A stretch of DNA of 64,000 nucleotides from Acidobacteriota bacterium (GTDB taxonomy: Bacteria; Acidobacteriota; UBA6911): contig QHZE01000451.1 in the NCBI GenBank assembly GCA_003225335.1, positions 2,612 to 66,611 of the forward strand, written 5' to 3'. The translations under genes and the position numbers were made by a program. Each line of letters starts with the position of its first letter. Position 1 is the first letter of the stretch. Under the pieces are notes generated by a model, which saw only the letters and a list, made by a program, of their open reading frames with translations, did not search any database and was not told the origin of the DNA. Below are positions 290 to 62,642 of this stretch, piece by piece.

Positions 290-292
290 TTT

Positions 293-372
293 CGGATTGC
301 GGATTGAAAGACTGGGAAGAAAGCGATCTCGTATTTCAAATCCGCAATCGGAAATCCGCAATCGCCAATCGG
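293..372. repeat. family E palindromic element (AAATCCGCAATCG units) between convergent genes
   Basis: GGATTGCGGATT ... AATCCGCAATCGGAAATCCGCAATCG inverted and tandem units. Further copies at 22975-23016 and 32512-32563. Confidence 0.7.
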
Positions 373-373
373 G

Positions 374-1792
374 CTACGGGAAGATGCCCAGCTCCATGTA
401 GGCGCGGGCTATCTTCTCGATGGCGTTGAGAAAGGCAGACGTCCGCAGATCCTTGATCTTGGGGTTCCTGAGCTGCGTATCGCGCATTTCATGATATGCG
501 ACGGCCATGGTCTCTTCGAGTCCTGAGTTGACGAGGTCGAGCTCGTCCGCCCCTCGGACTATGGCCGAACGGTCACTTTCGCTGAACTGCTTTCCCGTGG
601 CAATCTCGATTGCCCGGAGCATCCGATTCTCCATGGTTTCCTGGTAGCGCTTCCCCATGCGTCCGAAACGAACGTGCGACAGGTTCTTCAGCCACTCGAA
701 GTAGGATACGGTCACGCCGCCCGCATTGGCGTATATATCCGGGATGACAAAGACTCCCTTTTCCTGAAGAATCGCCTCCCCCTCTGGGGTGGTTGGACCG
801 TTGGCCGCTTCGAGAACAATCTTTGCTTTGATTCTGGGAGCGTTCTCCGCCGTAATCTGATTTTCAAGGGCGGCGGGGATCAGGACGTCGCATTCCGATT
901 CCAGAACATCGTTGCTTCCGGGCAAGTTCGTGGCCCCGGGAGAATTGAGAATCGACCCTGTCTCTTTCTTATGCTGAAGCACCTGATCTTCATTGAGACC
1001 GCGGGTATTCAAAATTGCGCCTTCGCGCTCCGCTATCGCCACGACGGTCGCCCCGCCCTCGCGGCAGAACTTGGCGGCGTGATACCCTACGTTTCCAAGG
1101 CCCTGAATCGCAACGCGCTTTCCCTCAAGGCCCGAAGTCAGCCCCAGGGCTTTCATGTCGTCCTTCTGTGCGCACGCCTCCCGGAGAGCGTAAAACACGC
1201 CGCGACCTGTGGCCTCTCGCCTTCCACGGATTCCTCCCTGCGTGACCGGTTTGCCGGTGACACAGGCCAGGGCGTCAAGGTGGCCGGTGTTGATGGCCAT
1301 GTAGGTATCCGCAATCCAGGCCATTTCTCTTTCTCCCGTGCCGTAATCAGGGGCCGGCACGTCGATGCCCGGGCCTATGCAGTTCTTCTTGACCAGCTCA
1401 TGAGTGTAGCGCCGCGTGACGCGCTCCATCTGCTCCGCGGTGTATTTGCCAGCATCGATCTGCACCGCACCCTTGGCTCCGCCAAACGGCACATCGACGA
1501 TCGCGCACTTGTAAGTCATGAGAGCCGCAAGAGCCATGACTTCGTCTTCGTTGGCGTCCGGGCTGAAGCGAATCCCCCCCTTGACCGGCAGCTTGTGGTG
1601 GCTGTGCTCGACGCGCCACGCCGAAATGACCTCCACGCTGCCGTCCGGATTCCGAAGGGGGAACTTAAAGTGGTAAATGCTGTTGCAATACTTGATCTGA
1701 TCCAGAAGACCCTTGGGGAGACCGGTCAGCGCGGCGGCGTGATCAAAGTAGCGGAGCACGTTTTCAAAGAAACTCTGGTTGGATGCCGGCAT
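374..1792 (-). CDS. gdhA: glutamate dehydrogenase (Glu/Leu/Phe/Val dehydrogenase family)
   Basis: The 472 aa translation carries the GGAKG catalytic-lysine region (..[14 protein letters not shown]..) and a C-terminal Rossmann motif [10 protein letters not shown]. It aligns full length to NAD(P)-GDH. Confidence 0.9.
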
Positions 1793-1867
1793 TGCAAACT
1801 CCTCTCAGGACCGCGATTCTGCCATATCCCGGGCACAGAACCCAAGCAAAGAACCAGAGGAGCTCGT

Positions 1868-1930
1868 GGTTCGGAGTTCAGGCTTTAGCCTGCTGCGGTC
1901 CAGCGCAGCCTGAAGGCTGAAACTCCAAAC
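1868..1930. repeat. family B palindromic element (GGTTCGGAGTTCAGGCTTTAGCCTG...CAGCCTGAAGGCTGAAACTCCAAAC)
   Basis: Two adjacent hairpin arms. Copies or half-copies at 4901-4962, 28302-28364, 28388-28448, 30682-30709 and 48199-48230. Confidence 0.75.
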
Positions 1931-1980
1931 TTGTCAATCACGTTTCTGCGGTGGCGTGCGATCAAATAAAACGGGCCCCC

Positions 1981-2011
1981 TTGTGGATAGACAGAAGCAA
2001 CAAAGTATAAT
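1981..2011 (+). promoter_or_regulatory. candidate sigma-70-type promoter (TATAAT at 2006-2011) upstream of the MBL-fold hydrolase gene
   Basis: Perfect -10 TATAAT 25 nt upstream of ATG 2036. Weak -35 (TTGTGG / GTGGAT). Confidence 0.3.
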
Positions 2012-2035: not shown

Positions 2036-3091
2036 ATGCGCAAACTCATTTTAGTGGTTTGGGCGCTGTTGATGATTGGAATATCCGCCCAGCCCCAATC
2101 ACCGCAAAAGGGGCTGGATATCTATTGGTGCGATGTGGAAGGAGGAGCGGCCACTCTTATTGTCACCCCGGCTGGAGAATCCATACTGGTAGATTCCGGA
2201 TGGCCCGGGGAACGCGATGCGGCGCGCATAGCGAAGATCGCGAGGGAAGTTGCCGGATTGAAACAGATCGATCACCACCTCACGAGCCACTGGCACACCG
2301 ACCACTTCGGGGGCATCAGCGCTCTGGTGCAACAGATTCCCGTAAAGAACTTCTACGACCACGGGTTTCCGGCGTTGCCGGTCTCGGATATCCCGCCTGA
2401 GCTGGTGGAAGCCTATAAACGGGTCACCGCAGGAAAAACAACGGTGCTCAGGCCGGGGGATGGGATTCGACTGAAGCAGGCTCCGGGCAGCCCCCCGGTC
2501 TCGTTAAAGGTCGTGGCTTCGCACGGAGTGGTTTTGGGGGAGAAGGACGGCGCGCCGCAAGTGCGAGCCTGCAGCCCGGAGGCCAAGCACGAAGCCAGGG
2601 CAATCGACACATCCGACAATGCCCGCAGCCTGGCTTTCGTCCTCTCCTTTGGAGACTGGCAATTTTTCGACGCGGGAGACCTGACCTGGAATGTGGAGCA
2701 TAAACTCGTCTGTCCCCGAAACCTGGTCGGCACAGTCGACGTGTATCAGGTCACACACCACGGCATGGACATAAGCAACAACCCGGCGCTCGTGGAGGCG
2801 CTCCGGCCGCGCGTGGCCGTCATGAACAACGGCGCCAGCAAAGGCGGGTCTCCGGCCGCCGTCCGCATCGTGAAGGCATCGCCAGGGCTCCAGGGATTCT
2901 TCGCGCTTCATCGCAACATCCAGAGCGGGCCTGAGGACAATGCGTCTCCCGAGCTTACCGCCAACGACGAAGAGCAGTGCAAAGGGGAGTACGTGAAACT
3001 TGCGGTAGGCCCCGACAGCAAGTCCTACACGGTGAGCATCCCGTCCAAAGGAACCACAAGAAGTTACACGACTGCGCGCATTCACCGCTAA
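2036..3091 (+). CDS. MBL-fold metallo-hydrolase, secreted
   Basis: N-terminal signal peptide MRKLILVVWALLMIGISAQP. Metallo-beta-lactamase motif HHLTSHWHTDHFGG. Preceded by an AGGAGG RBS at 2025-2030. Confidence 0.7.
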   Translation: MRKLILVVWALLMIGISAQPQSPQKGLDIYWCDVEGGAATLIVTPAGESILVDSGWPGERDAARIAKIAREVAGLKQIDHHLTSHWHTDHFGGISALVQQIPVKNFYDHGFPALPVSDIPPELVEAYKRVTAGKTTVLRPGDGIRLKQAPGSPPVSLKVVASHGVVLGEKDGAPQVRACSPEAKHEARAIDTSDNARSLAFVLSFGDWQFFDAGDLTWNVEHKLVCPRNLVGTVDVYQVTHHGMDISNNPALVEALRPRVAVMNNGASKGGSPAAVRIVKASPGLQGFFALHRNIQSGPEDNASPELTANDEEQCKGEYVKLAVGPDSKSYTVSIPSKGTTRSYTTARIHR

Positions 3092-3140
3092 GACGCAAAA
3101 GACGCGAAGACGCGAAGAACCGCAAAGAAACGAAGAATCG
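3079..3140. repeat. family A element (GACGCGAAGA core), half copy
   Basis: ..TTCACCGCTAAGACGCAAAAGACGCGAAGACGCGAAGAACCGCAAAGAAACGAAGAATCG. Confidence 0.7.
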
Positions 3141-3156
3141 TCGCCAGGAGGCAGGA

Positions 3157-4749
3157 ATGATCAGACGCATTTTGCGGCTTGTCGCTGTGATTGCAGTGGC
3201 CGCCTTCGGGGCGCCGGCGCAGCCCCGGCAGAGTGATGCGAGGCTCGGGGCGCTGAAAGACGAGGCGGCGCAGGAAGTCGATCGGATGAAGGAATTCACC
3301 CAACAGGCCGTGGACCAGATCTTCAGCTTTGGCGAGCTCGGGTTCCAGGAATTTGAAACTTCACGTTATTGCATCAACATCCTGAAGAAGAACGGGTTCC
3401 GCGTGGAGGAGGGAATATCCGGCATGCCCACCGCGTGGATGGCGACCTGGGGATCGGGCAAGCCCGTCATCGCCCTGGGTTCCGACATCGACGGCATTCC
3501 GCAGGCTTCCCAGAAACCCGGCGTCTCTTACCGCGCGCCCCTTCTCCCCGGGGCGCCGGGCCATGGCGAAGGGCACAACAGCGGTCAAGCGGTCAACATT
3601 ACCGCCGCGCTGGTCGTGAAAAAGCTGATGGAGCGGGAGCGCTTGCCGGGGACCCTGAAGCTATGGCCGGGCGTGGCGGAAGAGCAGCTGGGCGCCAAAG
3701 CGTATTACGTTCGAGACGGATATTTCAAAGACGTGGATGCCGTGATCTTCTCCCATGTGAGCGACAACCTGAGCACCTCCTACGGTTCTGCGAACGGCAC
3801 CGGTCTGGTCTCGGTGCAGTACTCGTTTCAAGGAGAGAGCGCTCATGCCGCAGGAGCGCCCTGGAGAGCCCGCAGCGCTCTGGACGCCGTCGAGCTGATG
3901 GACATCGGCTGGAACTTCAAGCGCGAGCATCTGCGGCTGCAGCAACGCTCGCACTATGTCATCACAAACGGCGGCGATCAACCCAACGTCGTCCCGCCCA
4001 ACGCGTCGGTGTGGTATTTCTTCCGCGAGACGGAGTACCCGCGCATTCGAGAGATGTTTGAAATGGGCAATACCATCGCACAGGCGGCCGCAATGATGAC
4101 GGGCACCCAGGTCTCCTGGCGTCTCCTGGGCTCCGCCTGGCCGGCCCACTTCAACAAGGTCGTCGCCGAAACCATGGACGCGAACATCAAGAAGGCGGGT
4201 CTTCCGGTCTGGAGCGAAGCCGACCAGACCCTGGCGAAGGCGGTGCAGAGAGAGGTGAAGTCTGAAGAAAAGGGGCTCAGCAGCGAGCTTGCGCCCCTTG
4301 AAGCGCCCGTTAAAGACGAGGACAAACGAGGAGGCGGCTCGGACGATATCGGGGATGTGTCCTGGAACGTCCCCACGGTCACGCTGCGCTACCCATCCAA
4401 TATTCCCGGACTTCCCGGGCACAACTGGATCAACGCCGTGTCCATGGCGACGCCCATCGCCCACAAGGGAGCCACGGCGGGAGCGAAAGTGGCGGCGATG
4501 ACTGTGCTCGATCTCTTGATCCGGCAGGACCTCGTGCAGCAAGCCTGGGAGTATTTCCGGAATGTTCAGACCAAGGATGGGAAATACATTCCTTTCGTGA
4601 GTCCCGAGGACAAGCCGGCGATCGAGCTAAATAGGACGATCATGGAGCGCTACCGCCCGGAGATGCGGAAATACTATTACGATCCATCCCGGTACAAGAC
4701 GTATCTGGAGCAGCTGGGAATTTCCTACCCCACCGTACGCAAGGAGTAG
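3157..4749 (+). CDS. M20-family amidohydrolase/peptidase (AbgB/aminoacylase-like), secreted
   Basis: The ORF call at 2977 runs through a family-A repeat. The true start is ATG 3157, behind RBS AGGAGG, followed by the signal peptide MIRRILRLVAVIAVAAFGAPAQ. M20D-type motifs are present (GSDIDGIPQ.., HGEGHN). Confidence 0.75.
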   Translation: MIRRILRLVAVIAVAAFGAPAQPRQSDARLGALKDEAAQEVDRMKEFTQQAVDQIFSFGELGFQEFETSRYCINILKKNGFRVEEGISGMPTAWMATWGSGKPVIALGSDIDGIPQASQKPGVSYRAPLLPGAPGHGEGHNSGQAVNITAALVVKKLMERERLPGTLKLWPGVAEEQLGAKAYYVRDGYFKDVDAVIFSHVSDNLSTSYGSANGTGLVSVQYSFQGESAHAAGAPWRARSALDAVELMDIGWNFKREHLRLQQRSHYVITNGGDQPNVVPPNASVWYFFRETEYPRIREMFEMGNTIAQAAAMMTGTQVSWRLLGSAWPAHFNKVVAETMDANIKKAGLPVWSEADQTLAKAVQREVKSEEKGLSSELAPLEAPVKDEDKRGGGSDDIGDVSWNVPTVTLRYPSNIPGLPGHNWINAVSMATPIAHKGATAGAKVAAMTVLDLLIRQDLVQQAWEYFRNVQTKDGKYIPFVSPEDKPAIELNRTIMERYRPEMRKYYYDPSRYKTYLEQLGISYPTVRKE

Positions 4750-4758
4750 CCCGCCGTT

Positions 4759-4812
4759 TAGCCACAGAGCCACGGAGACACAGAATCTCTGTGTCTCCGT
4801 GGCTCTGTGGCT
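4759..4812. repeat. family C perfect palindrome (AGCCACAGAGCCACGGAGACACAGA / TCTGTGTCTCCGTGGCTCTGTGGCT)
   Basis: 25 nt perfect arms around ATCTC. Related copies at 24673-24735, 40838-40896 and 41020-41040. Confidence 0.8.
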
Positions 4813-4900
4813 AAACATTGGATTTGCCTCGATCCACTAGGCCCTCTTGGTGGACACAAAGTTCACAAAATGGTCAAATTTTTGCGTCATCGCGGGCGCA

Positions 4901-4962
4901 GGTTCGGAGTTCAGCCTTCAGGCTGCACTGGCGCCGGGCAGGCTAAAGCCTGAACTCCAAAC
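4901..4962. repeat. family B element
   Basis: GGTTCGGAGTTCAGCCTTCAGGCTGCACTGGCGCCGGGCAGGCTAAAGCCTGAACTCCAAAC. Confidence 0.75.
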
Positions 4963-4984
4963 GGGCCGTGCCACGAAGCCATCG

Positions 4985-5075
4985 TGTCACGGGCGTCTCG
5001 CCCGTGACTGACTGGGCGGTATGAGGCTCACTCGCTATGAATAGCGAGCAGACCTCATACCGCCGAGGGTAGGGA
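4985..5075. repeat. family F element (CACGGGCGTCTCGCCCGTG hairpin plus TGAGGCTCACTCGCTAT..ATAGCGAG hairpin)
   Basis: Second copy at 55296-55445 in the opposite orientation. Confidence 0.7.
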
Positions 5076-5225
5076 ACCGCCGATGCACGCCGATTAACGC
5101 CGATGGAAACATCCGCGTCCATCGGCGTTCATCGGCGGTTTCAAACTCTCAGACTGCCCTTCTCTCAACCATGGCTCTCGTACGAAACTTGACCAGTTTG
5201 TGAACTTCGTAGCTGGCTAGTCTGG

Positions 5226-5783
5226 CTAGGCCCGAGATTGCTCCACTTCGGCTGTGCAGATACGCAGGGACTTTGCGATGGGCGTCAGATGAGTTTTCAG
5301 AGCAGTTCGCCCACGATTCAGCCGCGACATAACGGTTCCGAGCGGTATGCTCAGCATGGCGGCTATTTCTTTGTAGGAGAACTCCTGGACGTCGGCGAGG
5401 AGCAGTACGGCGCGGAAGTCTTCGGGCACCTTCTTAAGAGCGGCAAGAACATCCTCGTCCGTGATCTGCTCGGGTGTCGGGGGCTCATAGGTCAGGAGGT
5501 CTTCCAGCGCATTCTCGCTCTCTCTGCGCAACCATAATGAGAACCATTTCCGCCGATGATGGTGGATGACGTGAAACAGGATCTTGAACAACCACGCCCT
5601 GCAGTTCGTTCCGGGCGTGAACCGATGGAAAGACTTCCAGGCTTGTAGATACGTCTCCTGCACCAGATCTTCCGCTTCAGTCCGGTTCCCTATGATCTTG
5701 GCTGCGGTCCTGTAAAGAGAATCCAGATGAGGCAACGCCGCGCTTTCAAACTGTTCGAGACTGGCCTTCTCGGTGGTCTCCAT
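5226..5783 (-). CDS. ECF-type sigma-70 family RNA polymerase sigma factor
   Basis: 185 aa. Region 2 reads ..DLVQETYLQAWKSF... Region 4 HTH reads ..FSYKEIAAMLSIPLGTVMSRLNRGR.. Confidence 0.85.
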   Translation of the reverse strand: METTEKASLEQFESAALPHLDSLYRTAAKIIGNRTEAEDLVQETYLQAWKSFHRFTPGTNCRAWLFKILFHVIHHHRRKWFSLWLRRESENALEDLLTYEPPTPEQITDEDVLAALKKVPEDFRAVLLLADVQEFSYKEIAAMLSIPLGTVMSRLNRGRTALKTHLTPIAKSLRICTAEVEQSRA

Positions 5784-5896
5784 GATTTCACGCTAGACGA
5801 TCAGGTTTGCGAGCGCGGAACGTTCCCGGCTGTAGTGATCCTGTCTATGGTTTTCGAACGCCTTTCGGAGTGATGAATGCCGGTACGCTGGGGCGC

Positions 5897-6175
5897 CTAT
5901 GCCATTCGTCCGGTGCCGTCCGTTCTCAGCATTTCAGCAAGGAACGATGAGCAGTTGGTCAGATTCACCTGGCGCTCCAAGAGGTTCCTGAGGAGCCTTA
6001 GCCCGTCACGGTCCGCAAACGAGACTTCACCAATGTCCAGTGTGAGTTTGTGGCCGCCTTGGAAACGCCTTTCACAGTATGTCGCAACCTCCGTAACCCA
6101 CGGACCAATCAAATCACCTTCCAGTTTCACAACGACTCGGTCGCCCGAAAGGCCGCCTTCTGAGATTCTCACCAT
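5897..6175 (-). CDS. STAS-domain protein (anti-sigma-factor antagonist-like)
   Basis: 92 aa. Pattern VVVKLEGDLIGPW...LTLDIGEVSFADRDGLRLL is typical of SpoIIAA/STAS. Lies immediately upstream of the ECF sigma gene on the same strand. The frame stays open upstream of the annotated ATG, so the start is uncertain. Confidence 0.5.
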   Translation of the reverse strand: MVRISEGGLSGDRVVVKLEGDLIGPWVTEVATYCERRFQGGHKLTLDIGEVSFADRDGLRLLRNLLERQVNLTNCSSFLAEMLRTDGTGRMA

Positions 6176-6379
6176 CTGCTGTTTCCCACTCTTTCCACTT
6201 GGTAATGGAACAGATGCAACTGGCCTGCCAATCCGGCGTCATCGGCTCTACTCCTCTCGTAACCCACAAGTCTAGAGAGATTTGATCGAAGCAAGGCAAC
6301 ACGCGACCCGTCGGCGGGCCCTCGAAATTTCGTGGAAAGGAGACTCGTCCATCCACGCGTGAGGCCAAAACTACGATAT

Positions 6380-6426
6380 TTTGTGGGTGAAAAGAAGGGC
6401 GCCGCCTCCAAGACGCGAAGAATCAC
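6380..6426. repeat. family A element, half copy
   Basis: TTGTGGGTGAAAAGAAGGGCGCCGCCTCCAAGACGCGAAGAATC. Confidence 0.6.
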
Positions 6427-6438
6427 TAAGGATTCTAT

Positions 6439-7894
6439 TCACGGCTTTTGACGGGTTACTCGGCGGTGGATGCCGAGTTTCTTCATCCTGCTGCGGAGTG
6501 TGTTGGGGTGGAGGTTGAGAATCTTTGCGGCGCCTCTGGGGCCTTCGATGACCCACGCTGATTTCTCGAGGACTGAAAGAATGTGGTGGCGCTCGACATC
6601 CTCGAGGGTGCCGGAACCTGGTGCGCTTGAGGCGTGGTCCGCCTGCACGGCGACCTCCTGGGCCACGGCATGGGTCCCAGGGGGTTCCGCGGACATGGCC
6701 GAAGGGGAAAGGGACGGGGAAGCGGAAAGTGTGGGAAATAGCACACGTTCGAGCTTGAGAACCGGTCCGGTGGACAATACTGCCGCGCGCTGCAAAACAT
6801 TTTGGAGCTCTCGAATATTGCCGGGCCAGGAATAACTGGCGAGGAGGTCCATAGTGTCCTGAGCAACCTTGTCAATCTTCTTTCCGATCCGCTTCGCAAA
6901 ACGGGTCAGGAAAAACGTCACGAGTTGGGGAATGTCCGACTGGCGTTCCCGAAGCGGCGGGATCGTGAGAGGAAACACGTTAAGGCGGTAGTACAGGTCG
7001 GCACGGAGCTGCCCTGCCGCGACCGCCTGGGCAAGGTCGCGATTGCTGGCAGCGATAATGCGCACATCCACTCGAAGGGTGCGGCTGCTCCCCACGGGCT
7101 CGAATTCCTGTTCTTGCAGGACGCGCAGGAGCTTGACCTGGGTTTCCAGCGGGAGCTCCGAGACTTCGTCCAGAAACAGGGTGCCTCCGTTAGCCAGCTC
7201 GAAACGCCCCGTGCGAGCAGTGATAGCGCCGGTGAAAGCTCCTTTGACGTGACCGAAGAGCTCGCTTTCGACCAGGCCCGCGGATATGGCGCCGCAATTG
7301 ACCTTCACGAGCGGCCGATCTTTCCGGGCGCTGCGGGCATGGATGGCGCGGGCTATAAGCTCTTTGCCGGTTCCTGTTTCGCCGTAGATCAGAACCGTAG
7401 AGTCGGTCGGGGCCACCCTTTCCACCTGACCCAGCAGGTCCAGCAGGGCAGGGCTGCTTCCCACGATCTCTTCGAAGTTGTGCTCGCGCCGGATTTCCTC
7501 CTGCAGGTAGATATTTTCAGCGCGAAGCCGGTTCTTGAGCGTTTCGACCTCTGCGAGCGCTGCGCGAAGCTCCTCTTCGGCCCGGCGCCGGAGGGCGACC
7601 TCCTGCTTCATCTCTGCGTAGAGACGGGCGTTTGTGAGAGAGATGGCGGCTTGAGACGAGAGTATGTGCATGATCCTGATGCGGTCGGCTGTGAAGGCGT
7701 CCGTCGTCAGGTTGTTCTCGAGGTACAGAATCCCCCCGAACTTTCCCTGGTGAACTACCGGCACGCAAAGGATCGATTTGGGCCGCGCCGAGCAGATGTA
7801 GGGGTCCCCCCAAAACCTCTCATCAACCGGGGCATTGCCCAGAACGATGCTCTCTCCGGTTTTGCGAACGTAGTGGACGACGGCCTGAGAAAAA
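6439..7894 (-). CDS. C-terminal part of a giant regulator: GAF (C-terminal half), sigma-54-interaction AAA+ domain and Fis-type HTH. The frame is open upstream of the annotated ATG at 7764 and joins the upstream ORF through a frameshift near 7890-7895.
   Basis: Walker A GETGTGKE, the GAFTGA loop and ESELFGH are all present. The C-terminal HTH reads ..[21 protein letters not shown]. Translating upstream of the ATG gives GAF continuation [29 protein letters not shown].. Confidence 0.8.
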
Positions 7895-10800
7895 AGATCC
7901 GAGGAAGAACCCTCTTTGCGCGCCGGCTTTTTCCAGAGCGATCTTCATGAGTTTGCGCAAGAGATCTTCGAGGACGATTTCGACGGCGATGACGTGGGCA
8001 GCTTTTGAAACGGTAGAAATGTCGAGGGGAGAAGGTTGCGGATCTCTTTCAATCCCGGCAACCGACGGCTCTCCTGGCGATGTCCCGCCGTAGGGTCGGC
8101 CCTGTGTGGCCGCCCGATCTGCCGACGCAGGGGCGCCCCTACGGCCACTTTCGTCTTCGTCTCGATCACACCCTGAACCGGCAGGGAAAGCCGTGAGCTC
8201 CGAGTCGAGCAGGTCCCGTGCCAATAAATTCGGATACTTTTCCTCCAAAGCTTTCACTTTAGCCGCGGCGCCCCACTCCTGGTAAAGACGGCGGGCCCGG
8301 CGAAGGTAGAGCGCAGCGATTTCTTCGTTGCTTTGCTGCAGCCAATATCGGGCATAAAGCTCGTTTGCGATGGCCTCGTTGGGAAGGTTTTGCGTCTCGC
8401 GCGCATACCGAAGCGCTTCCTGGTACGTATCCATGGCCGCGACCTCATGCCCGCAGACACGCTCCAGCTCGGCTCCAAGCAGCAGGGAATAGCAACGGAA
8501 ATTCTCCGGACAATTCTCTGCGAGGAAAGCCAGAGATTTCGCCAGCCGCTGAAGTTCTTGCTCCGAATCCCGGCGTTCCGCATGGCCGGCATGGGAGCAG
8601 CGTGCGGCCAGCGTGACGCCGTAGAGAAAGTCCAGCAGAACCGGCCAGATCGTTCCACCGAGAGAGTGTATTACCTGGCGGGCGTTTCGAGCGTTTTCGT
8701 AGGCCTTCTCGTATTCTTCGAACAGGACACTGAGATGAAGCTTGACCACGTAAAGGAAGGTCATGAAGAAAGGGTTGTTGCTGTAAGCCCGGACATAGGC
8801 ATCCTCGTCAAAGTCCTCGGCGGTAAGTTGGAGCGCGGACGAGGTCAGGCCCTGGAGGGCCCGCGCCCAATTCAGAATGACCTTTTGAGCGTCCACGAAG
8901 CTGTCCATCTTGAGCTTCTTGATCAGTTGCAGGTTCGGCGAATAATCGCGGACAAAGAGGGCCAGGTCCCGGCTGGTGAGGAACGCGGGCCAGGTCTCGG
9001 TGAAGGCCCCGTAGTTTGCGTAAGTGAAATCGCCGGTCTCCAGGCCGCTGCGGCAGGCTTCGCGCGCATGCGGGATGCAAGTCCGCATCGGCCGCCGCCA
9101 GAGGTTGACATGGGCGTTGAATTGCTGATGGACTTTGGCTCGCCGCTTGCGATCGTTGAGGCGTTCATTGACGCTCAACGCAAGCCTCCCGAACCGGTAC
9201 GCAGACTCGTAGTCTCCTCTGACGGGACCCACTGTGATCGCGTGAGTCACATAACCGTACGCGGACTCCTCGATGTTTCCGTGCGTCAGTGAAAGGCGGA
9301 CCATCGTTGCGGAGATAAGGCGGGTGAGAGCCTGATCTCCCAAGATATAGGCAGGCGCCCATAGGGCGGTGAGGATTCCCATCACCAACCGGATCTCCGG
9401 ATCCGCCATCACAGGCAGATCGACCAGGGAATCAATGGTCCGGTTGCCGAGGATGCTCCGGATGCCGTTCAGCTCGGCCTCGAGCGCGGATTCCTTGCCG
9501 GCCTCGGAATCGGGAAACGTAACACCGAAGAGCTCAAGGCCCTCCTTGCCGGCCTGAACGGCGAGAGCGTAGCGAGACATGTTCTCGTACTGGACGACTT
9601 TCAGATTGCAGACCTGAGCCTTGTCCAATCGCGTTCGAGCTCGTTGAAGGATATGGTCGAAGCAGCGCTGCGCCTCGTTGAAATGGCCGCACAGGTACGC
9701 GCATTCGGCAGCCTCAATCTGGAGGTCGAACATGAGCTGATAATCGGAATTCCACGAGTCTTCCGTGAGGAGATCCCTTCCTGCTTTGAGATAGGTCAGG
9801 GCGGCCTCGTAGGCGGTCGAGAACTTCGCCTTCCGGCCGGCGTTCAGGTTCAGCCGCGCCAATTGAAGGCGCTCGGCATCGTCCGTAATCAAACCCGCGC
9901 CGCGGTTCAAGTGGTGGACGATGTCAAAAAGCTTCTCGTCCAGGACGGCGGGATCGGACCGCTCCAGGAGCAGACGGCCGACAGTACCGTGGATGAGCTG
10001 TTTTTCTCCGTCCGGGATCAAGGCGTAGGCCGCTTGCTGAACACGGTCATGCAGAAATGAGTATGCGGGGATGGGATGGGCGACGTCCTCGGACTGCTCT
10101 GGAGACGCATCGTACGACGGTGCAGCCGGCAAGAGCAGCTGCTCATCAAAAACTTGCTGGAGATCGTTTGCGGCCGCGTCGCGTGATTGCTGGCTGACGA
10201 TGGCAAGCGTGGACAGGTCGAAAGGGTTTCCAATGCAAGAGGCAAGCGTCAGGGCGCGCTGAGTCTTGGGCGAGAGGCGCTGGATCTTCCGCGTCATGAG
10301 GTCGATGACGTTGTCCGTCATTGCCGCTCCTACAATGGCATCCATCTGAAAAATCCAGAAGCCGCGGTCGTAGTCGAACTCGAGCAGCCCTTCCTGACGC
10401 AACGCCTTCAAGAACTGCTGCACGAAGAAAGGGTTTCCATCAGTTTTCTGCAGAACCAGACGGGCGAGAGGCTCGGCCTCCTCGAGTTTTCGATGGAGGG
10501 TGTCGCCGATCAGGAGAGTAAGATCTCGAAGTCCCAGCGCATTCAGGAAGAGGCGCTGTATCGGAGCGCCGGCCGATTCCAGCGCGCTTAGCGTTCTCGT
10601 CAACGGATGACTGGCATCGACTTCATTGTCACGGTAGGCGCCCATCAAGAAAAGGTGCCCGATGTCGGAGCTGGTGAGGAGCGGTCTCAGCAGACCCAGT
10701 GTGGCCGCGTCGGCCCATTGCAGGTCGTCCAGAAAAATGACGAGCGGATGGTCCCGGCGCGCCAGTGCCGTGAGCAGGTTTTGGAATACGAGCTGAAATC

Positions 10801-12100
10801 TGTTCTGCGCCTCGATCGGTCCCAACGGGGGCGGCGGTGTCTGCTCGCCCAGGATCAGCGCAATCTCGGGGACCACCTCGGCCACCACGCCGCCGCCGGT
10901 GCTGCCGAGAGCTTCTGAGAGCCGGGCGCGCCAGAGGCTTAGCCGTTGCTCGCTTTCGGTGAGTAACTGCTGAACGAGTGCCCGCAACGCTTGAATCAAG
11001 GCGCCCAAAGGGATGTTGCGCACGACCTGGTCGAACTTCCCGGAAATGAAGTAGCCTTTTTGACGAACGATAGGCTTGTAAAGCTCCTGAATGAGAGACG
11101 TTTTTCCTATCCCGCTGTAACCGGCCACAAGCATCATGGCGGTGGATCCCTCGCAAACGCCTTCGAAGGCCTGAAGCAATTGGGATAACTCCGTCTCTCG
11201 TCCGTACAGTTTCTGGGGAATCAGGAAGCGGTCGGAAACGTCGCGCCGCCCGAGAGTAAACGCGGCGATGGAAGCGCGAGAATTCCACTCCTGCTCGCAG
11301 TGCTGGAGGTCTTCGTTGAGTCCGAGCGCGCTCTGGTAGCGCTCCTCGGCAGTTTTGGCGAGCAGTTTCATGACAATCTGAGAAAGGGGTTCGGGGATCG
11401 TCGCGTCAAGATGGCTGGGGGAGGGAGGCGTCTTGGCGATGTGACCGTGAATGATCTCCAGGGTGTCGCCCGACGTGAAGGGAGGCGCTCCGGTCAGGAA
11501 CTCGTACAGGATGACGCCGAGGGAGTAGAAATCAGTGCGATAGTCAATCGCGCGGTTCATGCGGCCGGTCTGTTCCGGCGAAATATACGGCAGCATGCCC
11601 CTCATGAGATGGACAGGCATCAGTGCCTGGAAATCGGCGGAGGACCTGGCCGCCAGACCCAGATCGGCGAGAGTCACCTCCCCCGTGGCAGGGAATACGA
11701 GAATGCCCTTGGGGTTGAGGCCTCTGTGTGCGACCTTGCGCCGATGCAATTCGGCCAGGATAGTGCAAAGCTGAACGGCAATTCTGAAAAAGAAGGCGAG
11801 ACTCGGTCGCCGGCTGCCGCGCAAGGAGTGGAGCGGCGCCCCGCCGCGATCTTCGAGCACAAGACAGCAGCGCCCATTCATCCGAAACATCTCGTACGGA
11901 CGCAGGACACCCGCAACGGAGAGGTCCTTCAGGATCTGGAACTCCCTCTCGAGCAACTCGATGTCGGTGTGGTTTGGCGGTTGCCGGTGCGGGACCTTCA
12001 GGAGGACCGGCCTTTTGTCCTTCAGGCTCCGGCCGCGCTGGAGAGCGTGCCAGTCATTACGCGTGAGCTCCTCGATGAGCTCGTAACCAGGAATCGTCAA
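7823..12100 (-). CDS. N-terminal part of the same regulator: Ser/Thr protein kinase domain, STAND/AAA NTPase (P-loop GYSGIGKTS), TPR-like helical region and the start of GAF. Probable TTG start at 12100; the ORF track start is 12166.
   Basis: Kinase motifs: [10 protein letters not shown] (catalytic loop), DLGLA (DFG-like) and PYISPEQ (APE-like). AAGGAGG sits 6 nt upstream of TTG at 12100. The frame terminates at 7823-7825, in a different frame from the downstream sigma-54 ORF. Confidence 0.8.
7890..7895 (-). other. A6/T6 homopolymer: most probable site of the single-base frameshift splitting the kinase-sigma54 regulator gene
   Basis: The frameshift must lie between the frame-A stop (about 7938) and the frame-B stop (7823). 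This is the only homopolymer of 6 or more in that interval. A 1-nt change here fuses ..[10 protein letters not shown] to [12 protein letters not shown].. Confidence 0.55.
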
Positions 12101-12236
12101 GAAAATCCTCCTTGGACGTCGCCTGCCGGATAGAAACCCTAAATGTGTGAGCGGAGTATGCCACAAGAGGAGTCCCTTGCAAAGAAGAGACGGTTTGACC
12201 GGGAGGAACCCTGGAGACTACATTGACAGAGAAAAA

Positions 12237-12340
12237 CTTGCCACGAATTTCACGAATTAAACGAATTTAATCCGCAAACCCGAAATCGGGGGTCCGGCGC
12301 TGGCCTGTTTTTTTCGTGTAATTCGTTCGTGTTTTCCTTA
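12237..12340. repeat. family D element (GCCACGAATTTCACGAATTA ... TTCGTGTAATTCGTTCGTG)
   Basis: Inverted arms. Other copies at 14440-14475, 22952-22985, 24741-24785, 45296-45374 and 58297-58365. Confidence 0.75.
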
Positions 12341-49570: not shown

Positions 49571-49571
49571 G

Positions 49572-53002: not shown

Positions 53003-53250
53003 CCTGGATTAGCCGCTCCAATCTGCCAGTTAGTTTCTGTCGCAAGACCAAGGATCCCGAAGGGGGTCCAGCAGGAAAGCCCAGGGCGCAAGCCTTGGGT
53101 TCAAGGTCCGGATTGCAGCTTGAAGTACAAATTCACCTCATAAGAACCCCAATGCAAAAACAGAAAGCAAACAGATGAAAGGCTACGAAGCAAACAGCAT
53201 GCCAGCTTTGCTTTGGAAACGAGGAAAGGTAAATTCCGAAATTCGAGCGG

Positions 53251-53279
53251 CCTGGAGCCAGGAAGCTTCTGGCTCCAGG
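53251..53279. promoter_or_regulatory. perfect 29 bp palindrome CCTGGAGCCAGGAAGCTTCTGGCTCCAGG in an otherwise gene-free 740 bp spacer
   Basis: Exact dyad symmetry centred on AAGCTT. Either an operator-like site or a hairpin. Confidence 0.3.
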
Positions 53280-53739
53280 CCGGGCTGAAGCGGCAAAGAT
53301 TTACCATCAGTGGAATTCAAGTACCGTGGGCTGTGAGCCGACTGCAATGCTTTGCGGTTGGCCTGGAGGCGTAGTCCATTCTGGATCATCGGCTGATCGA
53401 AATTCGCCGCGAAGATTCGGCCAAATACAAGATGCGGGAAAAACACGTACTCAAGGAAGGTTTCCGCGATCTCGTGACGGAGGTATTGCAGCGGGCCGAG
53501 CAGACCTATGGCGCTCCCGTCAGTCCCTGTTTCGTGAATCCGGAAGCAGGCCGGGCGCATGAAACGCTCTCCACTTGGAGCGGCGCTTGCATGCGGATAT
53601 TTCGATCCCGGCGCCGTGGAACCATTGGTCCCAAGCTGAAGAAAAGCGGCGGCGCATCCGCCGGGGCTTGCGAGGACATGTCCGCGTTGGACATTGTTTC
53701 TGTGCAGTTACTCACCATCAGTTCTTGACGACAGATCTG

Positions 53740-55295: not shown

Positions 55296-55445
55296 GGCCC
55301 GTGGCACGGGCGTCTCGCCCGTGGGAAACGAGGATCTAACCTGGGTCCGGGACGGCATGCCACGGCTCGCTTGTGAATGCCTTGGGTTCGCCGCTACTAA
55401 TAGCGAGTGAGCCTCATAGCAGTCATTCACGGGCGGGACGCCCGT
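55296..55445. repeat. family F element
   Basis: CCCGTGGCACGGGCGTCTCGCCCGTGGG ... CTAATAGCGAGTGAGCCTCATAGC ... CACGGGCGGGACGCCCGTGCC. Confidence 0.7.
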
Positions 55446-55512
55446 GCCAGGATAGCTTCGTCGCAGGGCCCGGCCATGATACGAACCAACCCATGACAAT
55501 GGGAATCGGCTC

Positions 55513-56505: not shown

Positions 56506-56524
56506 GGCTTCAATCGCGGCCTTT

Positions 56525-56600
56525 TTCACGACAAAGACGCGAAGACACGAAGACTCACACAGACATGATCGTGGTGGATCTTCGTGTCTTTGTGGTGAAG
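56525..56600. repeat. family A palindromic element, full copy
   Basis: TTCACGACAAAGACGCGAAGACACGAAGACTCACACAGACATGATCGTGGTGGATCTTCGTGTCTTTGTGGTGAAGG. Confidence 0.8.
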
Positions 56601-56799
56601 GCCGGATGCGTGCGCTCCCAGGAGCAGGAGGACTCTTGCGCTCGACCCTTTGCCCCTACCATGATTACAATGATTATGATTACACCCGTGGTTGACTGGA
56701 TTCTTTCGGCGGTGATACTATTCGCCTTTTGTTTGACCCCTCGGGACTCTTCACCGAAACTTCGTATGAACGACTCATCTGATCCAGAGAAGGTGAACT

Positions 56800-58296: not shown

Positions 58297-58365
58297 TTTT
58301 TCGTGAAATTCGTGAAATTCGCGGCGGTTTTTACTGATTACTGGCCACGAATTCCACGAATTAAA
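58297..58365. repeat. family D element
   Basis: TTCGTGAAATTCGTGAAATTCGCGGCGG...CTGGCCACGAATTCCACGAATTAAAAC. Confidence 0.75.
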
Positions 58366-60105: not shown

Positions 60106-61180
60106 CAAAGATCTTCATCCGTCCGCGAAGGTTCCTTCCGTGCGCGAGGAGAAATTGACGGAGGGACGGGAGAGCGTCGGCGTGGCCCTGCAGAGCGCCC
60201 TCGTCCACTCCATAGGCGCGGAACCGCTGCGGCGAATGCTCTACTACATGATGCTGACGCGCGAGCTGGAGAATCGAATCGAAAGAAAGCTGTACCGCCA
60301 AGGGAAAATTGTGGGCGGCGTGTATGTCGGCCGCGGGCAGGAAGCCATCAGCGTCGGGTCCTGCACCCTCACTCGGCCGCAGGATGTCGTATGTCCATCC
60401 CATCGCGATATGGCAGCATTTCTGATCCGGGGCATGACCCCGCCGAGGATACTTGCGCAGTACATGGGCAGGCGCGACGGCTACACCCGCGGAAGAGACG
60501 GCAACATGCATATGGGAGACCTCAAGCTGCACGTGATTTCGTTTGTCAGCATGCTGGCCGACAACGTCCCGGTCGCGGCCGGAGTCGGGCTCGCGTTCAA
60601 GATGCGCAAGGAAGACAGGGTGGTCCTCTGCTATTTCGGCGATGGCGCCACCAGTCGCGGAGACTGGCACGAGGGGCTGAACTTTGCCTCTGTCGAGAAG
60701 TTGCCGGTCGTTTACATTTGCAACAACAATCAGTTTGCGTATTCGACGCCCGTGCAATTACAGATGGCGGTGGAGAACGTGGCCGATCGCGCTCCGGCTT
60801 ACGGGATGCTGGGAGAAATCGTGGACGGCAACGACGTTCTCGCCGTTTATGACGCGACCCGAAGAGCGATCGAACGGGCGCGCGCCGGGCTCGGACCCAC
60901 TCTGCTCGAATGCAAGACGTTTCGCATGACTGGTCATTCCGCCCACGATGACGCCTCGTATGTCTCCAGGGAGGTCTTCGAAGAGTGGGAGCGAAAAGAT
61001 CCTATTTCCCGCTACCAGCGGGTTCTCTTGCAGGAGGAGATTATCTCGCAGGAGAAGATCGACGCGATGCAGCGGCAGGTAATTGAGGAGATAGACCAGG
61101 CAGTAGATTGGGCGGAAAGCAGCCCTTATCCGGAGCCGGAGGATTGCTTGCGCGGAGTCTATTATGAGGATGACGAATAA
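60092..61180 (+). CDS. 2-oxoacid dehydrogenase E1 alpha subunit, tandem paralogue (copy 2) with about 45 aa N-terminal extension
   Basis: Start ATG 60092. TPP motif ..FGDGATSRGDWHEGLNFA..NN. About 45% identical to copy 1 by eye. Confidence 0.85.
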   Translation: MRQHDKDLHPSAKVPSVREEKLTEGRESVGVALQSALVHSIGAEPLRRMLYYMMLTRELENRIERKLYRQGKIVGGVYVGRGQEAISVGSCTLTRPQDVVCPSHRDMAAFLIRGMTPPRILAQYMGRRDGYTRGRDGNMHMGDLKLHVISFVSMLADNVPVAAGVGLAFKMRKEDRVVLCYFGDGATSRGDWHEGLNFASVEKLPVVYICNNNQFAYSTPVQLQMAVENVADRAPAYGMLGEIVDGNDVLAVYDATRRAIERARAGLGPTLLECKTFRMTGHSAHDDASYVSREVFEEWERKDPISRYQRVLLQEEIISQEKIDAMQRQVIEEIDQAVDWAESSPYPEPEDCLRGVYYEDDE

Positions 61181-61186
61181 CGAGAC

Positions 61187-61290
61187 CTCCGACCTCAGAC
61201 CTCAGACCGCGCGGAAGCAGTCTCAGGTCCGAGGGTCTGACCCCTGAGGTCTGACTTCTCGTCATTCGTCATTCGTCACTCGTCATTCCA
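61187..61290. repeat. GACCTCAGAC palindrome plus TCATTCGTCA tandem units between E1-alpha copy 2 and E1-beta
   Basis: CGACCTCAGACCTCAGACC...GTCTGACCCCTGAGGTCTGAC then TCGTCATTCGTCATTCGTCACTCGTCATTC. Confidence 0.7.
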
Positions 61291-61291
61291 T

Positions 61292-62266
61292 ATGAGTCCG
61301 ACAACGTACCTGGAGGCGATTCGCCAGGGAATCTGGGAGGAGATGGAGCGCGATGAGCGCGTCTTCATCCTCGGAGAAGACGTAGGAATCTACGGAGGCG
61401 CCTTCAAGGTCACAGAGGGGATGCTGGAGCGCTTCGGCGCCCATCGTGTGATCGACACGCCTATTTCCGAGTCTGCGATCGTGGGAGCCGCTATCGGCGC
61501 CGCTTACATGGGTCTGCGGCCGATCGCCGAAATGCAGTTCATTGACTTCATTTCCTGCGCTTTTGACCAGATCACGAACTTTGCCGCGAAGTCCCGGTAC
61601 CGCTGGGGCGCCGGAGTTCCCATGGTCATCCGGGGGCCCTCAGGGGGCGGCGTGCACGGCGGGCCGTTCCACTCGCAAAACCCCGAGATGTACTTTGTCC
61701 ATACCCCCGGCCTTAAGGTGGTTGCGCCCTCCACCGCCTATGACGCGAAGGGATTGATCAAAGCTGCTATCCGTGACGAGGATCCGGTCATTTACCTGGA
61801 GCACAAGTTTCTCTATCGCAGGGTCAAGGAAGAACTGCCCCAAGACGACTACACAGTCCCGATCGGGAAAGCCGTCATTCGCCGTCCGGGGCGGGACCTC
61901 GTGGTCTTGACCTACGGCGCTATGGTCTACATCGCCATGGAGGCGGCCTCCGAACTGGTTAAAGAGGGTATCGACCTCGAAGTGATAGATCTAAGAAGCC
62001 TGCTTCCGCTCGATAAGGAAACCATCCTGGAGTCGGTGAGGAGAAACAACAAGGTCTTCGTCTTGCACGAGGACACGCGAACAGGAGGGATTGCGGGTGA
62101 GATCGCTGCCGTCATTTGCGAGGAGGCCTTCGAGTATCTCGATGGGCCTGTCTTGCGCGTAACGGCCCTGGACACCCCCGTTCCGTACAGCCCTCCATTG
62201 GAAGAATTCTTTCTTCCAAAAGTGCCGGACGTTCTCAAAACGGCGCGGATGCTGGCTTCGTATTAG
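61292..62266 (+). CDS. 2-oxoacid dehydrogenase E1 component beta subunit
   Basis: Transketolase-like pyrimidine and C-terminal domains (..FLLGEDVG..). 324 aa. Confidence 0.9.
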   Translation: MSPTTYLEAIRQGIWEEMERDERVFILGEDVGIYGGAFKVTEGMLERFGAHRVIDTPISESAIVGAAIGAAYMGLRPIAEMQFIDFISCAFDQITNFAAKSRYRWGAGVPMVIRGPSGGGVHGGPFHSQNPEMYFVHTPGLKVVAPSTAYDAKGLIKAAIRDEDPVIYLEHKFLYRRVKEELPQDDYTVPIGKAVIRRPGRDLVVLTYGAMVYIAMEAASELVKEGIDLEVIDLRSLLPLDKETILESVRRNNKVFVLHEDTRTGGIAGEIAAVICEEAFEYLDGPVLRVTALDTPVPYSPPLEEFFLPKVPDVLKTARMLASY

Positions 62267-62369
62267 GCCGGACGCTGCCGGAAAGAATTTTCGTCTGCCT
62301 GGACTGCGCAAAATGAAACCACAGATGAACGCAAATTTACACAGAGCAGCCAAACCGCAACCAAAAAAC

Positions 62370-62642
62370 CTCACCGCAGAGGCGCGGAGAACGCGGAGGT
62401 CATCCCTCGGGGCGTCCCGCAAGGCGGGACTCAGCGTTTCTAACTCCCCGCACTCCCAGGAGAACGCACAAAAAATCCTTTGCCGGCAGGAAAGGATTTT
62501 TCTTCGCGGAATCTTCGCGCTCTTCGCGGCTTCGCGGTGAATCCTGGGCTGGACTTTCACCGCGAAGGCGCGAAGCACGCGAAGAAAACGCGAAGGACTT
62601 TAGTTTGGTTGCGGCTTTGCTGCTCTGTGTTCATCGGCGGGT
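62370..62642. repeat. composite family A-variant arms plus family I element
   Basis: TCACCGCAGAGGCGCGGAGAACGCGGAGG ... CTTCGCGCTCTTCGCGGCTTCGCGGTGAATC ... TTTCACCGCGAAGGCGCGAAGCACGCGAAGAAAACGCGAAGG, then TTTGGTTGCGGCTTTGCTGCTCTGTGTTCATCGGCGG. Confidence 0.75.

Follow-up and report, generated by a model that had tools for sequence, protein, structure and literature searches.

Short repeats that lie between bacterial genes have been described under several names, and the palindromic elements of one stretch of acidobacterial DNA (contig QHZE01000451.1, positions 2,612 to 66,611; 64,000 nucleotides, hereafter "the window") share properties with most of them. Repetitive extragenic palindromic (REP) sequences, together with bacterial interspersed mosaic elements (BIMEs) and hairpin-forming REP doublets (REPINs), are, like the window elements, dense extragenic palindromes with several families per genome, clusters and doublets, variation between strains, and a location often but not only after genes. 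REP sequences and REP-associated tyrosine transposases (RAYTs), including the TIRYTs of Acidobacteria, have been described previously (PMC3733652, PMC6006769). The window elements differ from these in that they have no GTAG or CGTC tag, that their arms consist of tandem units, and that the partner gene encodes a PD-(D/E)XK nuclease.

MITEs (miniature transposable elements that have inverted repeats) such as Correia, RUP and Nezha are also short inverted-repeat elements that outnumber a gene-bearing parent (~20:1 in the loci sampled here), nest within one another, and show presence/absence polymorphism. In contrast to MITEs, the elements described here show no target-site duplication, the parent carries the gene for a hydrolytic nuclease or a four-helix bundle instead of a DDE or HUH transposase, and the loop can be as short as 3 nt. 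Rho-independent terminators are likewise GC-rich stem-loops after genes, but the window stems measure 15 to 30 bp, have no U-tract, are palindromic on both strands, and also lie upstream of genes.

The arms themselves recall long heptameric simple sequence repeats (SSRs), which include the cyanobacterial short tandemly repeated repetitive (STRR) sequences, the GGGAATC arrays of Xanthomonas and Nostoc, the TAACTGA arrays of Beggiatoaceae, and arrays in Geobacter. Like the window elements, these are intergenic tandem units of 7 to 8 nt whose length varies between close relatives; some form inverted pairs, and their patchy distribution suggests transfer by an unknown vehicle (PMC4692102, PMC4679880, PMC2700814). 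Heptameric SSRs are over-represented, and inverted pairs were noted in Xanthomonas (PMC4692102). TAACTGA arrays are common to Beggiatoaceae, Cyanobacteria and Bacteroidetes, with "no mechanism evident" (PMC4679880), and paired tandem octamer and heptamer arrays of Geobacter were annotated as regulator sites (PMC2700814). In these reports, the arrays are regarded as SSRs, G-quadruplexes or regulator sites, with no link to bracketed mini-genes or to nonrepetitive caps. Head-to-tail units whose number varies among relatives, as in STRR sequences, are found in the window elements, and we take TTGGTCA-like units of the window to resemble STRR2.

The intervening sequences (IVSs) of 23S rRNA are selfish elements in which terminal inverted repeats surround the S23p open reading frame (ORF); their stem is cut by RNase III, and their origin and mobility are unknown (PMC4990558). 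Those of Leptospira, Coxiella and Xanthomonas (XCC0516) have one ORF of ~120 aa and a stem of ~28 bp, and are regarded as horizontally transferred (PMC4990558). The cassettes described below have the same layout of one such ORF between terminal inverted repeats. They differ in residing in ordinary intergenic DNA rather than in rRNA, and in having arms of tandem 7- to 8-nt units. Moreover, a second, unrelated gene (GxxExxY) uses the same layout here, and the window hairpins are gene-less.

We propose that the window elements belong, as gene-less and MITE-like members, to a class of inverted-repeat cassettes that spans phyla and in which a single mini-gene resides between tandem-unit arms. We assign this proposal a probability of about 0.6. 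What may be new is the cassette link, whereas the window palindromes themselves are of a known REP-, MITE- or STRR-like type. No paper was found that links tandem arrays of 7- to 8-nt units to bracketed mini-genes.

Hairpin anatomy and the genes between the arms

Intergenic DNA makes up 12.8% of the window. Stems of at least 12 bp cover 19.4% of intergenic bases versus 1.8% of coding bases, and 71 intergenic hairpins were observed, whereas dinucleotide-shuffled sequences contained 2.7 on average and never more than 7. The top 25 nonoverlapping hairpins are all intergenic. A repeat search of the window produced 33 direct-repeat families and 74 inverted pairs, and ~50 palindromic elements from at least 10 families occupy 32 to 34 of the 42 intergenic regions that measure at least 15 nt (Table 1). 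A first-pass annotation, made from the sequence alone, had described a dense, multi-family and often nested system of intergenic palindromes, and these counts bear it out. Folding of 14 representative copies, which had been suggested as a check, yielded -20 to -68 kcal/mol (z -4.3 to -16.1), and none of 200 shuffles was as stable.

Several more specific observations of that annotation also hold. The composites at 40838-41040, 46824-46995 and 48142-48277 are nested as described, the pair of family A and family I elements at 29210-29335 is found again at 62500-62645, and a half-site (3081-3135) lies across the MBL stop codon. Long N-terminal extensions of ORFs at 2977, 18232 and 46892 are indeed false, since gene calls in related strains start at 3157, 18415 and 47039. 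Pfam annotation of the window proteins agrees that no transposase or RAYT gene is present in the window. The families are dispersed rather than products of local duplication, as their motifs are also found in other phyla and viral contigs. The proposed comparison with related genomes revealed copies that are polymorphic in presence, number and length among 30 strain loci.

A feature absent from the earlier description is the structure of the arms. Most are head-to-tail arrays of 7-, 8-, 9- or 10-nt units, as judged from peaks of arm self-similarity, and often have a short nonrepetitive cap such as TTCACC...GGTGAA. Owing to this repetition, the arms of a single hairpin can pair in several registers. 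A period of 8 characterizes families A and C, which follow the pattern TTCACC(A/G)C-(AAGACGCG / CACAGAGN / CACGGAGA)n; the family A variant of the window is AAGACGCG/CACGAAGA. Family F has a period of 9 (GCCACGAATTN-CACGAATTA units), units of GGATTGC (family G), CAGACCT, CAGAATC, TCGTCAT and ATGACAA have a period of 7, and CCGATGNACG units have a period of 10. Complex palindromes without obvious units are family B (GGAGTTCAGCC..GGCTGAACTCC), of which a half copy is enclosed at 48142-48277, and the elements at 12358-12448 and 5012-5067.

Family A arms occur in two polarities, with TTCACC caps pointing outward or pointing inward as GGTGAA-loop-TTCACC. Inverted arms of TTCACC-capped CRCRRAGA octamers point outward at 4756, 29210, 34011, 40838, 43588, 46824 and 56521, and inward at 18268, 20372, 24673, 42463 and 62500. 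In other phyla, the outward form predominates (41 vs. 1 inward).

The family A consensus TTCACCRCNRAGACRCRRAGA was used to scan 185,579 species genomes, and at least 117 stretches matched, where ~35 chance matches were estimated for the whole collection. The matches listed include Acidobacteriota, Chloroflexota, Planctomycetota, Armatimonadota, Verrucomicrobiota, Bacteroidota, Hydrogenedentota, KSB1, Poribacteria, Nitrospinota, Desulfobacterota, and Gamma- and Betaproteobacteria, with one isolate of Methylobacter tundripaludum. Their layout is TTCACC, CRCRRAGA octamers, a loop, complementary octamers and GGTGAA, and the octamer variant is specific to each genome. A partner arm that pairs from the TTCACC end over at least 14 bp was found for 40 of 122 positions among the matches listed, versus 0 of 116 control positions.

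Among these same matches, six loci carry a gene in place of the loop, and in all six it is GxxExxY (TIGR04256, PF13366 PDDEXK_3, ~116 to 127 aa). All six genes or remnants are bracketed by octamer arms, and two of them were not retrieved on account of that arm pair. A decayed remnant (locus L081) and a frameshifted copy (L120) still reside between intact arms. When ORFs near the cross-phylum matches were clustered all against all, most clusters were common housekeeping families, and GxxExxY was the only cluster with a tie to the arms.

The association was also approached from the gene side. A metagenome scan with the GxxExxY alignment yielded 586 relatives, of which 80 were kept and 76 had enough flanking sequence. 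A bracketing inverted repeat is present at 50 of these 76 genes at a score of at least 14, and at 38 of 76 at a score of at least 18, whereas none of the 38 control windows taken from these loci reached 14 (maximum 10). Nearly all of these arms are of the octamer type and start with (T)TCACC. A further cassette resides between tyrA-like and ABM genes in a 4.7-Mb contig, and solo arms of the same variant adjoin the cassettes of L178, L201, L215 and L059. The cassette boundary is T|TCACC...GGTGA|A, in A/T-rich DNA. Thus, gene-bearing cassettes with the same TTCACC-octamer arms as families A and C, which correspond to the autonomous parent of a MITE, are seen in other species. A GxxExxY cassette from the species of the window was sought in six loci that belong to its soil metagenome series (L150, L160, L173, L177, L202, L221), and none of them carries the other families of the window.

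The D, E-x-K and GxxExxY residues of the protein are invariant. An AF2 model built from a diverse alignment reached a mean confidence (pLDDT) of 93, and a model from a shallow alignment (pLDDT 52) was discarded. A sequence search of the PDB produced no relative, even at an expect value (E) of 10, and PADLOC reported only weak similarity to the Cas4 core, with no defence-system assignment. PF13366 is annotated as of unknown function with "multiple transfers" between divisions (PMC3424549). GxxExxY is mentioned in three papers, once each and in passing in the two listed, and a literature search for the octamer strings found no paper.

A second mini-gene, encoding a four-helix bundle, has the same relation to heptamer arms. 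In one Pyrinomonadaceae locus (L147, Acidobacteriota), a four-helix-bundle cassette (2433-2892) and a GxxExxY cassette (4253-4732) are 1.4 kb apart, each with its own arm type. The former gene (PF05635/PF22296, a relative of PDB 2gsc) has GGGACAAGGGGCGAG-type arms, and that of L129 has CCAGTNG heptamer arms. Tandem 7- to 8-mer arms bracket both four-helix-bundle genes in genome loci and ~19 of 23 relatives in viral contigs, where the arm families are TAGGGTG, TTAGCTTT, GGAGTCT, TGAGGCN, GGGCTTT and TAGGCTG. This protein corresponds to the S23p ORF of 23S rRNA IVSs. The arms of these four-helix-bundle genes are of the heptamer type, yet none matches a window family in sequence.

The contigs that carry GxxExxY or four-helix-bundle genes are mostly 1 to 2 kb long, which fits cassettes breaking short-read metagenome assemblies.

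Searches of IMG/VR contigs with heptamer, 9-mer and B motifs matched 104, 90, 74, 20 and 4 stretches, the last number being for B. In phage-like contigs L326 (6560-7160) and L285 (12980-13740), GGATTGC hairpins occupy gaps between structural or other phage genes; therefore, heptamer hairpins also populate phage or prophage DNA. In viral contigs L471, L473, L475 and L483, phage genes have solo family F arms, (T-rich)-ACCACGAATTNCACGAATTA, immediately upstream of their ribosome-binding sites and start codons, which hints at a 5' untranslated region or promoter-proximal role for such arms.

The families can thus be graded by how they connect to cassettes. For families A and C, the link to GxxExxY cassettes is supported directly by the same cap, unit and layout. 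Family F probably goes with the GxxExxY nuclease, by its resemblance (CCAC, then units that start with CAC). The heptamer, decamer and B families are provisionally placed in the cassette class by shared architecture only.

Turnover among closely related strains

The 30 strain loci come from other assemblies of the same species, were found by exact-protein look-ups, and have a DNA identity of 98.6 to 99.8%. Repeat-free intergenic regions have a single length across all strains. The repeat-bearing region 48125-48366 has alleles of 242, 249, 256 and 263 nt, which differ in unit-sized steps, and region 3092-3156 has alleles of 57 and 65 nt.

The family F element at 45295-45377 (89 nt) is missing from L019, where the empty site reads GGAA|GGTCG, and GGAA is present on both sides of the element. 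In L016, the loop of this element is the exact reverse complement, and therefore recombination between the arms is indicated. The 121-nt palindrome nested in the right arm of the 40838 hairpin is present in most strains and cleanly absent from L016, L019 and L021, with a junction that shares CCT. At three sites (305-345, 26015-26150 and 34040-34080), unrelated hairpins occupy the same position in different strains. Such allelic replacement leaves behind the solo arms, or "half-sites", of the first-pass annotation. Unit slippage, loop inversion, tandem duplication, presence/absence, nesting and allelic replacement are therefore all seen within a single species, and turnover is very fast.

Two other differences between strains were noted. 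An extra methyltransferase gene in L016 (10846-11634) and L019 (6510-7181) is absent at window positions 42449-42624; the polymorphism sits between methionyl aminopeptidase and FUR-rubrerythrin genes, in a repeat-bearing intergenic region. At position 7902, the window has 95 nt fewer than all six strain loci, which encode a single 1918-aa Pkinase-AAA16-GAF-Sigma54_activat protein where the window has two ORFs (6439-7764 and 7823-12166, minus strand). This split gene reflects either a frameshifting deletion (pseudogene) or an assembly error.

Competing explanations and a proposed mechanism

The first-pass annotation had taken the repeats to be consistent with a terminator or REP-like role. If the hairpins were host RNA elements, such as selected terminators or 3' mRNA stabilizers that evolve in place and resemble one another across phyla by convergence, their very high stability would be expected, as would the position of many of them a few nucleotides from a stop codon (3081, 4756, 20372, 21474, 26017) and the frequent succession of a lost hairpin by another at the same site. 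All six convergent intergenic regions are occupied. However, so are four to six of the six divergent and 22 of the 30 co-directional regions, which does not amount to the concentration at convergent gene ends that had been reported, and the genes that flank 62267-62691 (E1-beta to E2) are co-directional, not convergent. Hairpins are found between divergent genes at 1866, 18268, 24673 and 45295, and inside the E1-beta/E2 operon (62330-62645).

Nor do the sequences resemble terminators. The 10 nt after hairpins contain a mean of 2.24 T on either strand, equal to background (2.1), and only 3 of 25 hairpins have five or more. Stem mismatches (6 sense G-U, 7 antisense, 16 other) reveal no wobble bias and no sense-strand excess, in what are small numbers. 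A canonical terminator-like hairpin with a T-run, GGAACGCGGGCGTAAGTGCCCGCGTTTTCTTTTT, resides at 36782-36819 after an erpA-like gene and is not a repeat; therefore, the organism has classical terminators outside the repeat families. The hairpins are not canonical intrinsic terminators. Moreover, an element is simply missing in some strains (L019 at 45295, L003 at 4756), and an identical TTCACC cap and octamer, invariably paired with one gene family, would not arise by convergence in more than 10 phyla. We consider selection in place unlikely.

As to a REP-like role, the elements do behave like REP or MITE elements: they are intergenic, belong to many families, cluster as BIMEs do, and vary in presence and copy number between strains. 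These properties would be expected if the palindromes were copied by a Y1 (HUH) transposase, either RAYT or TIRYT, encoded elsewhere in the genome, and Acidobacteria and Planctomycetes have their own TIRYT or class 3 TnpA-Y1 clades with atypical flanking hairpins (PMC3733652, PMC6006769). As a criterion for REP sequences, we used GTAG or CGTC at one foot of an imperfect palindrome of 20 to 40 nt. The hairpins instead end in TTCACC, TTGCCAC, GATTTCGG, GGTTCGGAG or GTTTAGCC, CGTC is present only within the TCGTCAT unit, and the arms consist of tandem units that together span up to ~40 nt. The gene found between such arms encodes a PD-(D/E)XK nuclease, not a Y1 transposase. A tblastn search (E <= 1) for RAYT or IS200 proteins in the window and 147 loci (30 strain and 117 genome loci; 1.3 Mb in total) yielded no match, although this is a weak test, and Pfam annotation of the window and the 30 strain loci contains no PF01797 or Y1 transposase. 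We give a REP/REPIN origin little credence.

Changes of length in unit steps and the flipped loop of one strain are also what might result if slippage-prone long SSRs were combined with template switching that copies arm to arm, with neither mobility nor function. Such a by-product of mutation would explain how arms of heterogeneous units remain perfectly complementary (4756-4816), and fits the over-representation of long heptameric SSRs in many bacteria (PMC4692102, PMC4679880). It would not readily explain the same families with conserved nonrepetitive caps at 5 to 12 unlinked sites of the 64-kb window, a cap and unit that recur in other phyla and viral contigs, a discrete 121-nt palindrome nested in the arm of another element, or arms that are tightly tied to two mini-gene families, and is improbable. 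Sites at which a global regulator binds DNA or RNA, a role suggested for the paired octamer and heptamer arrays of Geobacter metallireducens and for the TAACTGA arrays of Beggiatoaceae (PMC2700814, PMC4679880), would suit cooperative binding at a periodicity of 7 to 10 nt and the solo arms that lie a short way upstream of start codons, both in the window (3081-3135, start at 3157) and in viral contigs, but are hardly tenable given at least 10 unrelated unit sequences in one genome, copy numbers at a given gene that vary freely among ~99%-identical strains, sites that are swapped for unrelated ones, and neighbouring genes without a common theme. CRISPR arrays were ruled out, since the copies do not form direct repeats at regular intervals with unique spacers between them.

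Several observations weigh against the proposal that the window elements are gene-less relatives of cassettes. Neither a GxxExxY gene or remnant (E <= 50) nor a four-helix-bundle gene (jackhmmer over the window; E <= 50) was found in the window and the 30 strain loci, and no window loop contains GxxExxY. The window copies are therefore classified as gene-less relatives and not as cassettes. Neither mini-gene is present in the viral loci with heptamer, 9-mer and B motifs (2.6 Mb); thus, the cassette link there is one of shared architecture and not of matching sequence. No target-site duplication was detected at 30 cassettes, empty and filled sites share only 1 to 4 nt of microhomology, and each presence/absence event could equally be explained as a deletion. 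The order of events could also be the reverse, with mini-genes colonizing pre-existing hairpins.

If the hairpins do belong to the cassette class, they presumably arise from cassettes or are spread in trans by them. Spread would probably involve nuclease cleavage of a hairpin or cruciform, followed by recombinational repair with the arms as homology, and would be homing-like, without target-site duplication. Cleavage and recombinational copying are favored because a hydrolytic nuclease is incapable of strand transfer and because target-site duplications are not observed. Replication slippage and arm-to-arm template switching or recombination would then give rise to the changes in unit number and the flipped loops. 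Once transcribed, long perfect stems may act as RNase III sites or as blocks to 3' exonucleases, as for IVS stems, rather than as intrinsic terminators.

A broader proposal, which we advance tentatively and at somewhat less than even odds, is that the hairpins are debris of pan-bacterial minimal selfish elements. Each would consist of a ~120-aa GxxExxY or S23p/Avd-like gene, placed between tandem-unit inverted repeats, whose product recognizes its own arms as a hairpin or cruciform; it would spread by structure-targeted cleavage and recombinational copying without a transposase or target-site duplication, and would seed thousands of gene-less hairpins.

Individual elements and their significance

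The elements are collected in Table 1. The window, which is part of a soil acidobacterial metagenome-assembled genome, has a GC content of ~58% and ordinary housekeeping genes, including gdh, acs, P450, amidohydrolases, nuoBD, map, NAD synthase, and a 2-oxoacid dehydrogenase operon; PYU88633.1 and PYU92230.1 ("Acidobacteria bacterium") are identical to window proteins. The whole 64 kb produced no Rfam match at the gathering score, and a search for tRNA and tmRNA genes found none in the window.

Table 1. Repeat elements by window position, with no strand assigned (dG, folding free energy; z, folding z score)
Position	Element	Context	Values and strain alleles
288-373	Heptamer hairpin, GGATTGC/GCAATCC units (family G)		dG -31, z -4.3; 2 to 6 units, interior replaced
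1866-1930	Complex palindrome GGAGTTCAGGC..GCCTGAACTCC (family B)	Between divergent genes	80-nt element in 1, 2 or 3 tandem copies among window, L003, L002
3081-3135	Family A octamer solo left arm, TTCACCGC-(AAGACGCN)n	Overlaps MBL stop codon	+/-8-nt unit polymorphism
4756-4816	Family C octamer, perfect 29-bp stem (CCACAGAG/CCACGGAG units)		dG -59, z -16; L003 without 81-nt block that includes it
4899-4963	Family B palindrome		Direct and inverted repeats
4985-5007	Short GC hairpin CACGGGCGTCTCGCCCGTG		Second copy at 55305
5012-5067	Palindrome GGCGGTATGAGGCTCACTCGCTA..		Half copy at 55392; inner 27 nt deleted in L004
5073-5142	Decamer hairpin (CCGATGNACG units)		z -9.6, period 10; one 10-nt unit deleted in L004
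6408-6434	Family A fragment (AAGACGCGAAGAATC..)		Direct repeat
12238-12330	Family F 9-mer hairpin (GCCACGAATTN-CACGAATTA units)		Period 9
12358-12448	Complex palindrome, 44-nt arms		z -9.8
12470-12512	Family I motif (TTGGCTGCGGCT..) joined to family F right arm
14440-14474	Family F solo arm		Direct repeat
18268-18367	Family A hairpin, inward (..GGTGAA-loop-TTCACC..)	Between divergent genes	z -7.8
20372-20471	Family A hairpin, inward	After acs stop codon
20547-20566	TCGTCAA heptamer solo array		Direct repeat
21474-21544	Heptamer hairpin, CAGACCT/AGGTCTG units		z -6.9, period 7; left arm 4 units in window vs. 9 in L013/L014
22941-23016	Family F solo arm, then family G solo arm		Direct repeats
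24673-24760	Family C hairpin (inward), then family F solo arm	Between divergent genes	z -9.4
26017-26148	Heptamer hairpin, CAGAATC units, ~90-nt loop	Directly after MFS stop codon	Unrelated hairpin (GGGGACAGTCACCGAAATCCCC) in L008, L010, L011, L012
28300-28364 + 28385-28449	Two tandem family B palindromes		Single copy in L009, L011, L012
29210-29276	Family A hairpin, outward		z -7.8; intergenic region 29128-29359 is 232 or 240 nt
29278-29335	Family I element (TTGGTTGCGGCT..CTCTGTGTTCATCGG)		Direct repeats
30680-30710	Family B half copy		Direct repeat
32442-32563	Family G heptamer hairpin, long loop		Intergenic region 32428-32564 is 130 or 137 nt
34011-34080	Family A hairpin, outward (TTCACCAC..GTGGTGAA)		z -8.8; in 8 strains, right arm replaced by GGGGCAA/GGGGTCA-unit hairpin (at 34040)
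36111-36202	Family I-like hairpin (CCGATGAACACAGAT units)	At or upstream of DUF7790 gene start
37779-37823	Heptamer hairpin, ATGACAA units	Upstream of nuoB	z -6.3; centre 15 nt shorter in L016
40838-41040	Family C octamer hairpin (outward, ends ..GTGGTGAA) with nested 121-nt palindrome at ~40901-41021
41108-41130	TCGTCAT heptamer solo array		Direct repeat
41645-41690	Small family A-like hairpin
42463-42534	Family A hairpin, inward		dG -46.5
43588-43762	Family A arms, outward, ~100-nt loop	Between convergent genes
45295-45377	Family F hairpin	Between divergent genes	z -5.3
46824-46995	Family A octamer arms (outward) around ATGACAA-type hairpin at 46870-46956
48142-48277	Heptamer TTGTCAT/ATGACAA arms around family B half copy at 48195-48225
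49256-49472	Three palindromes: GGTAGTGGGTCATTTTGAA.. x2, and CCTGTCCATCCAGTTATCCTGTC..GACAGGATAACAGGATT
55300-55451	CACGGGCGTCTCGCCCGTG-type 24-nt arms around half copy of 5012 palindrome
56521-56603	Family A hairpin, outward		z -5.3
58298-58362	Family F hairpin
61168-61285	TCGTCAT/ATGACGA heptamer arms around CAGACCT heptamer hairpin (61190-61256)	Left arm overlaps gene end	Alleles of 87, 105 or 111 nt
62330-62645	Composite: family I arms outside (62330-62368, 62599-62645); inside, family A-like arm (62370-62400), two GC hairpins, family A inward hairpin (62500-62597)	Inside E1-beta/E2 operon	z -10.2

The GGGGCAA/GGGGTCA units of the replacement allele at 34040 resemble the arms of L147. Other repeats of the window stand apart from these families. 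A 53-nt repeat (8757-8809 and 14379-14431, 92% identical) is unlike the tandem-unit hairpins. A motif of ~60 nt common to 30735-30795 and 49511-49575, TACATGATTTCAYAAATACG..AACGT..CTTYCGCCCC..CGGGGYGAAA, is a separate intergenic repeat with a small GC hairpin. A perfect GC-rich hairpin of 16 bp, CGGCCTGGAGCCAGGA..TCCTGGCTCCAGGCCG, at 53248-53282 in the long region 53003-53724 fits no family, and is overlapped by an ORF at 53183-53560 (minus strand).

A practical consequence of the elements is that false ORFs and false N-terminal extensions arise from them. Because they rank with the sites that change fastest among ~99%-identical strains, they are of use as strain markers and may also modify operon expression.

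Arrays of heptamers or octamers and 23S rRNA IVSs have been described separately for 15 to 35 years, without a source or mechanism. The PF13366 and S23p four-helix-bundle families have thousands of members each (4,000 to 8,000 relatives per search from candidate lists alone) and no known function. That these genes are specifically paired with tandem-unit inverted arms connects the three puzzles, and leads to a testable question, namely whether the proteins bind or cut their own arms. If the hairpins are indeed debris of minimal selfish elements, this would explain the long-recognized intergenic excess of heptamers and octamers in many phyla, the origin of IVSs, and what two very large families of uncharacterized proteins do.

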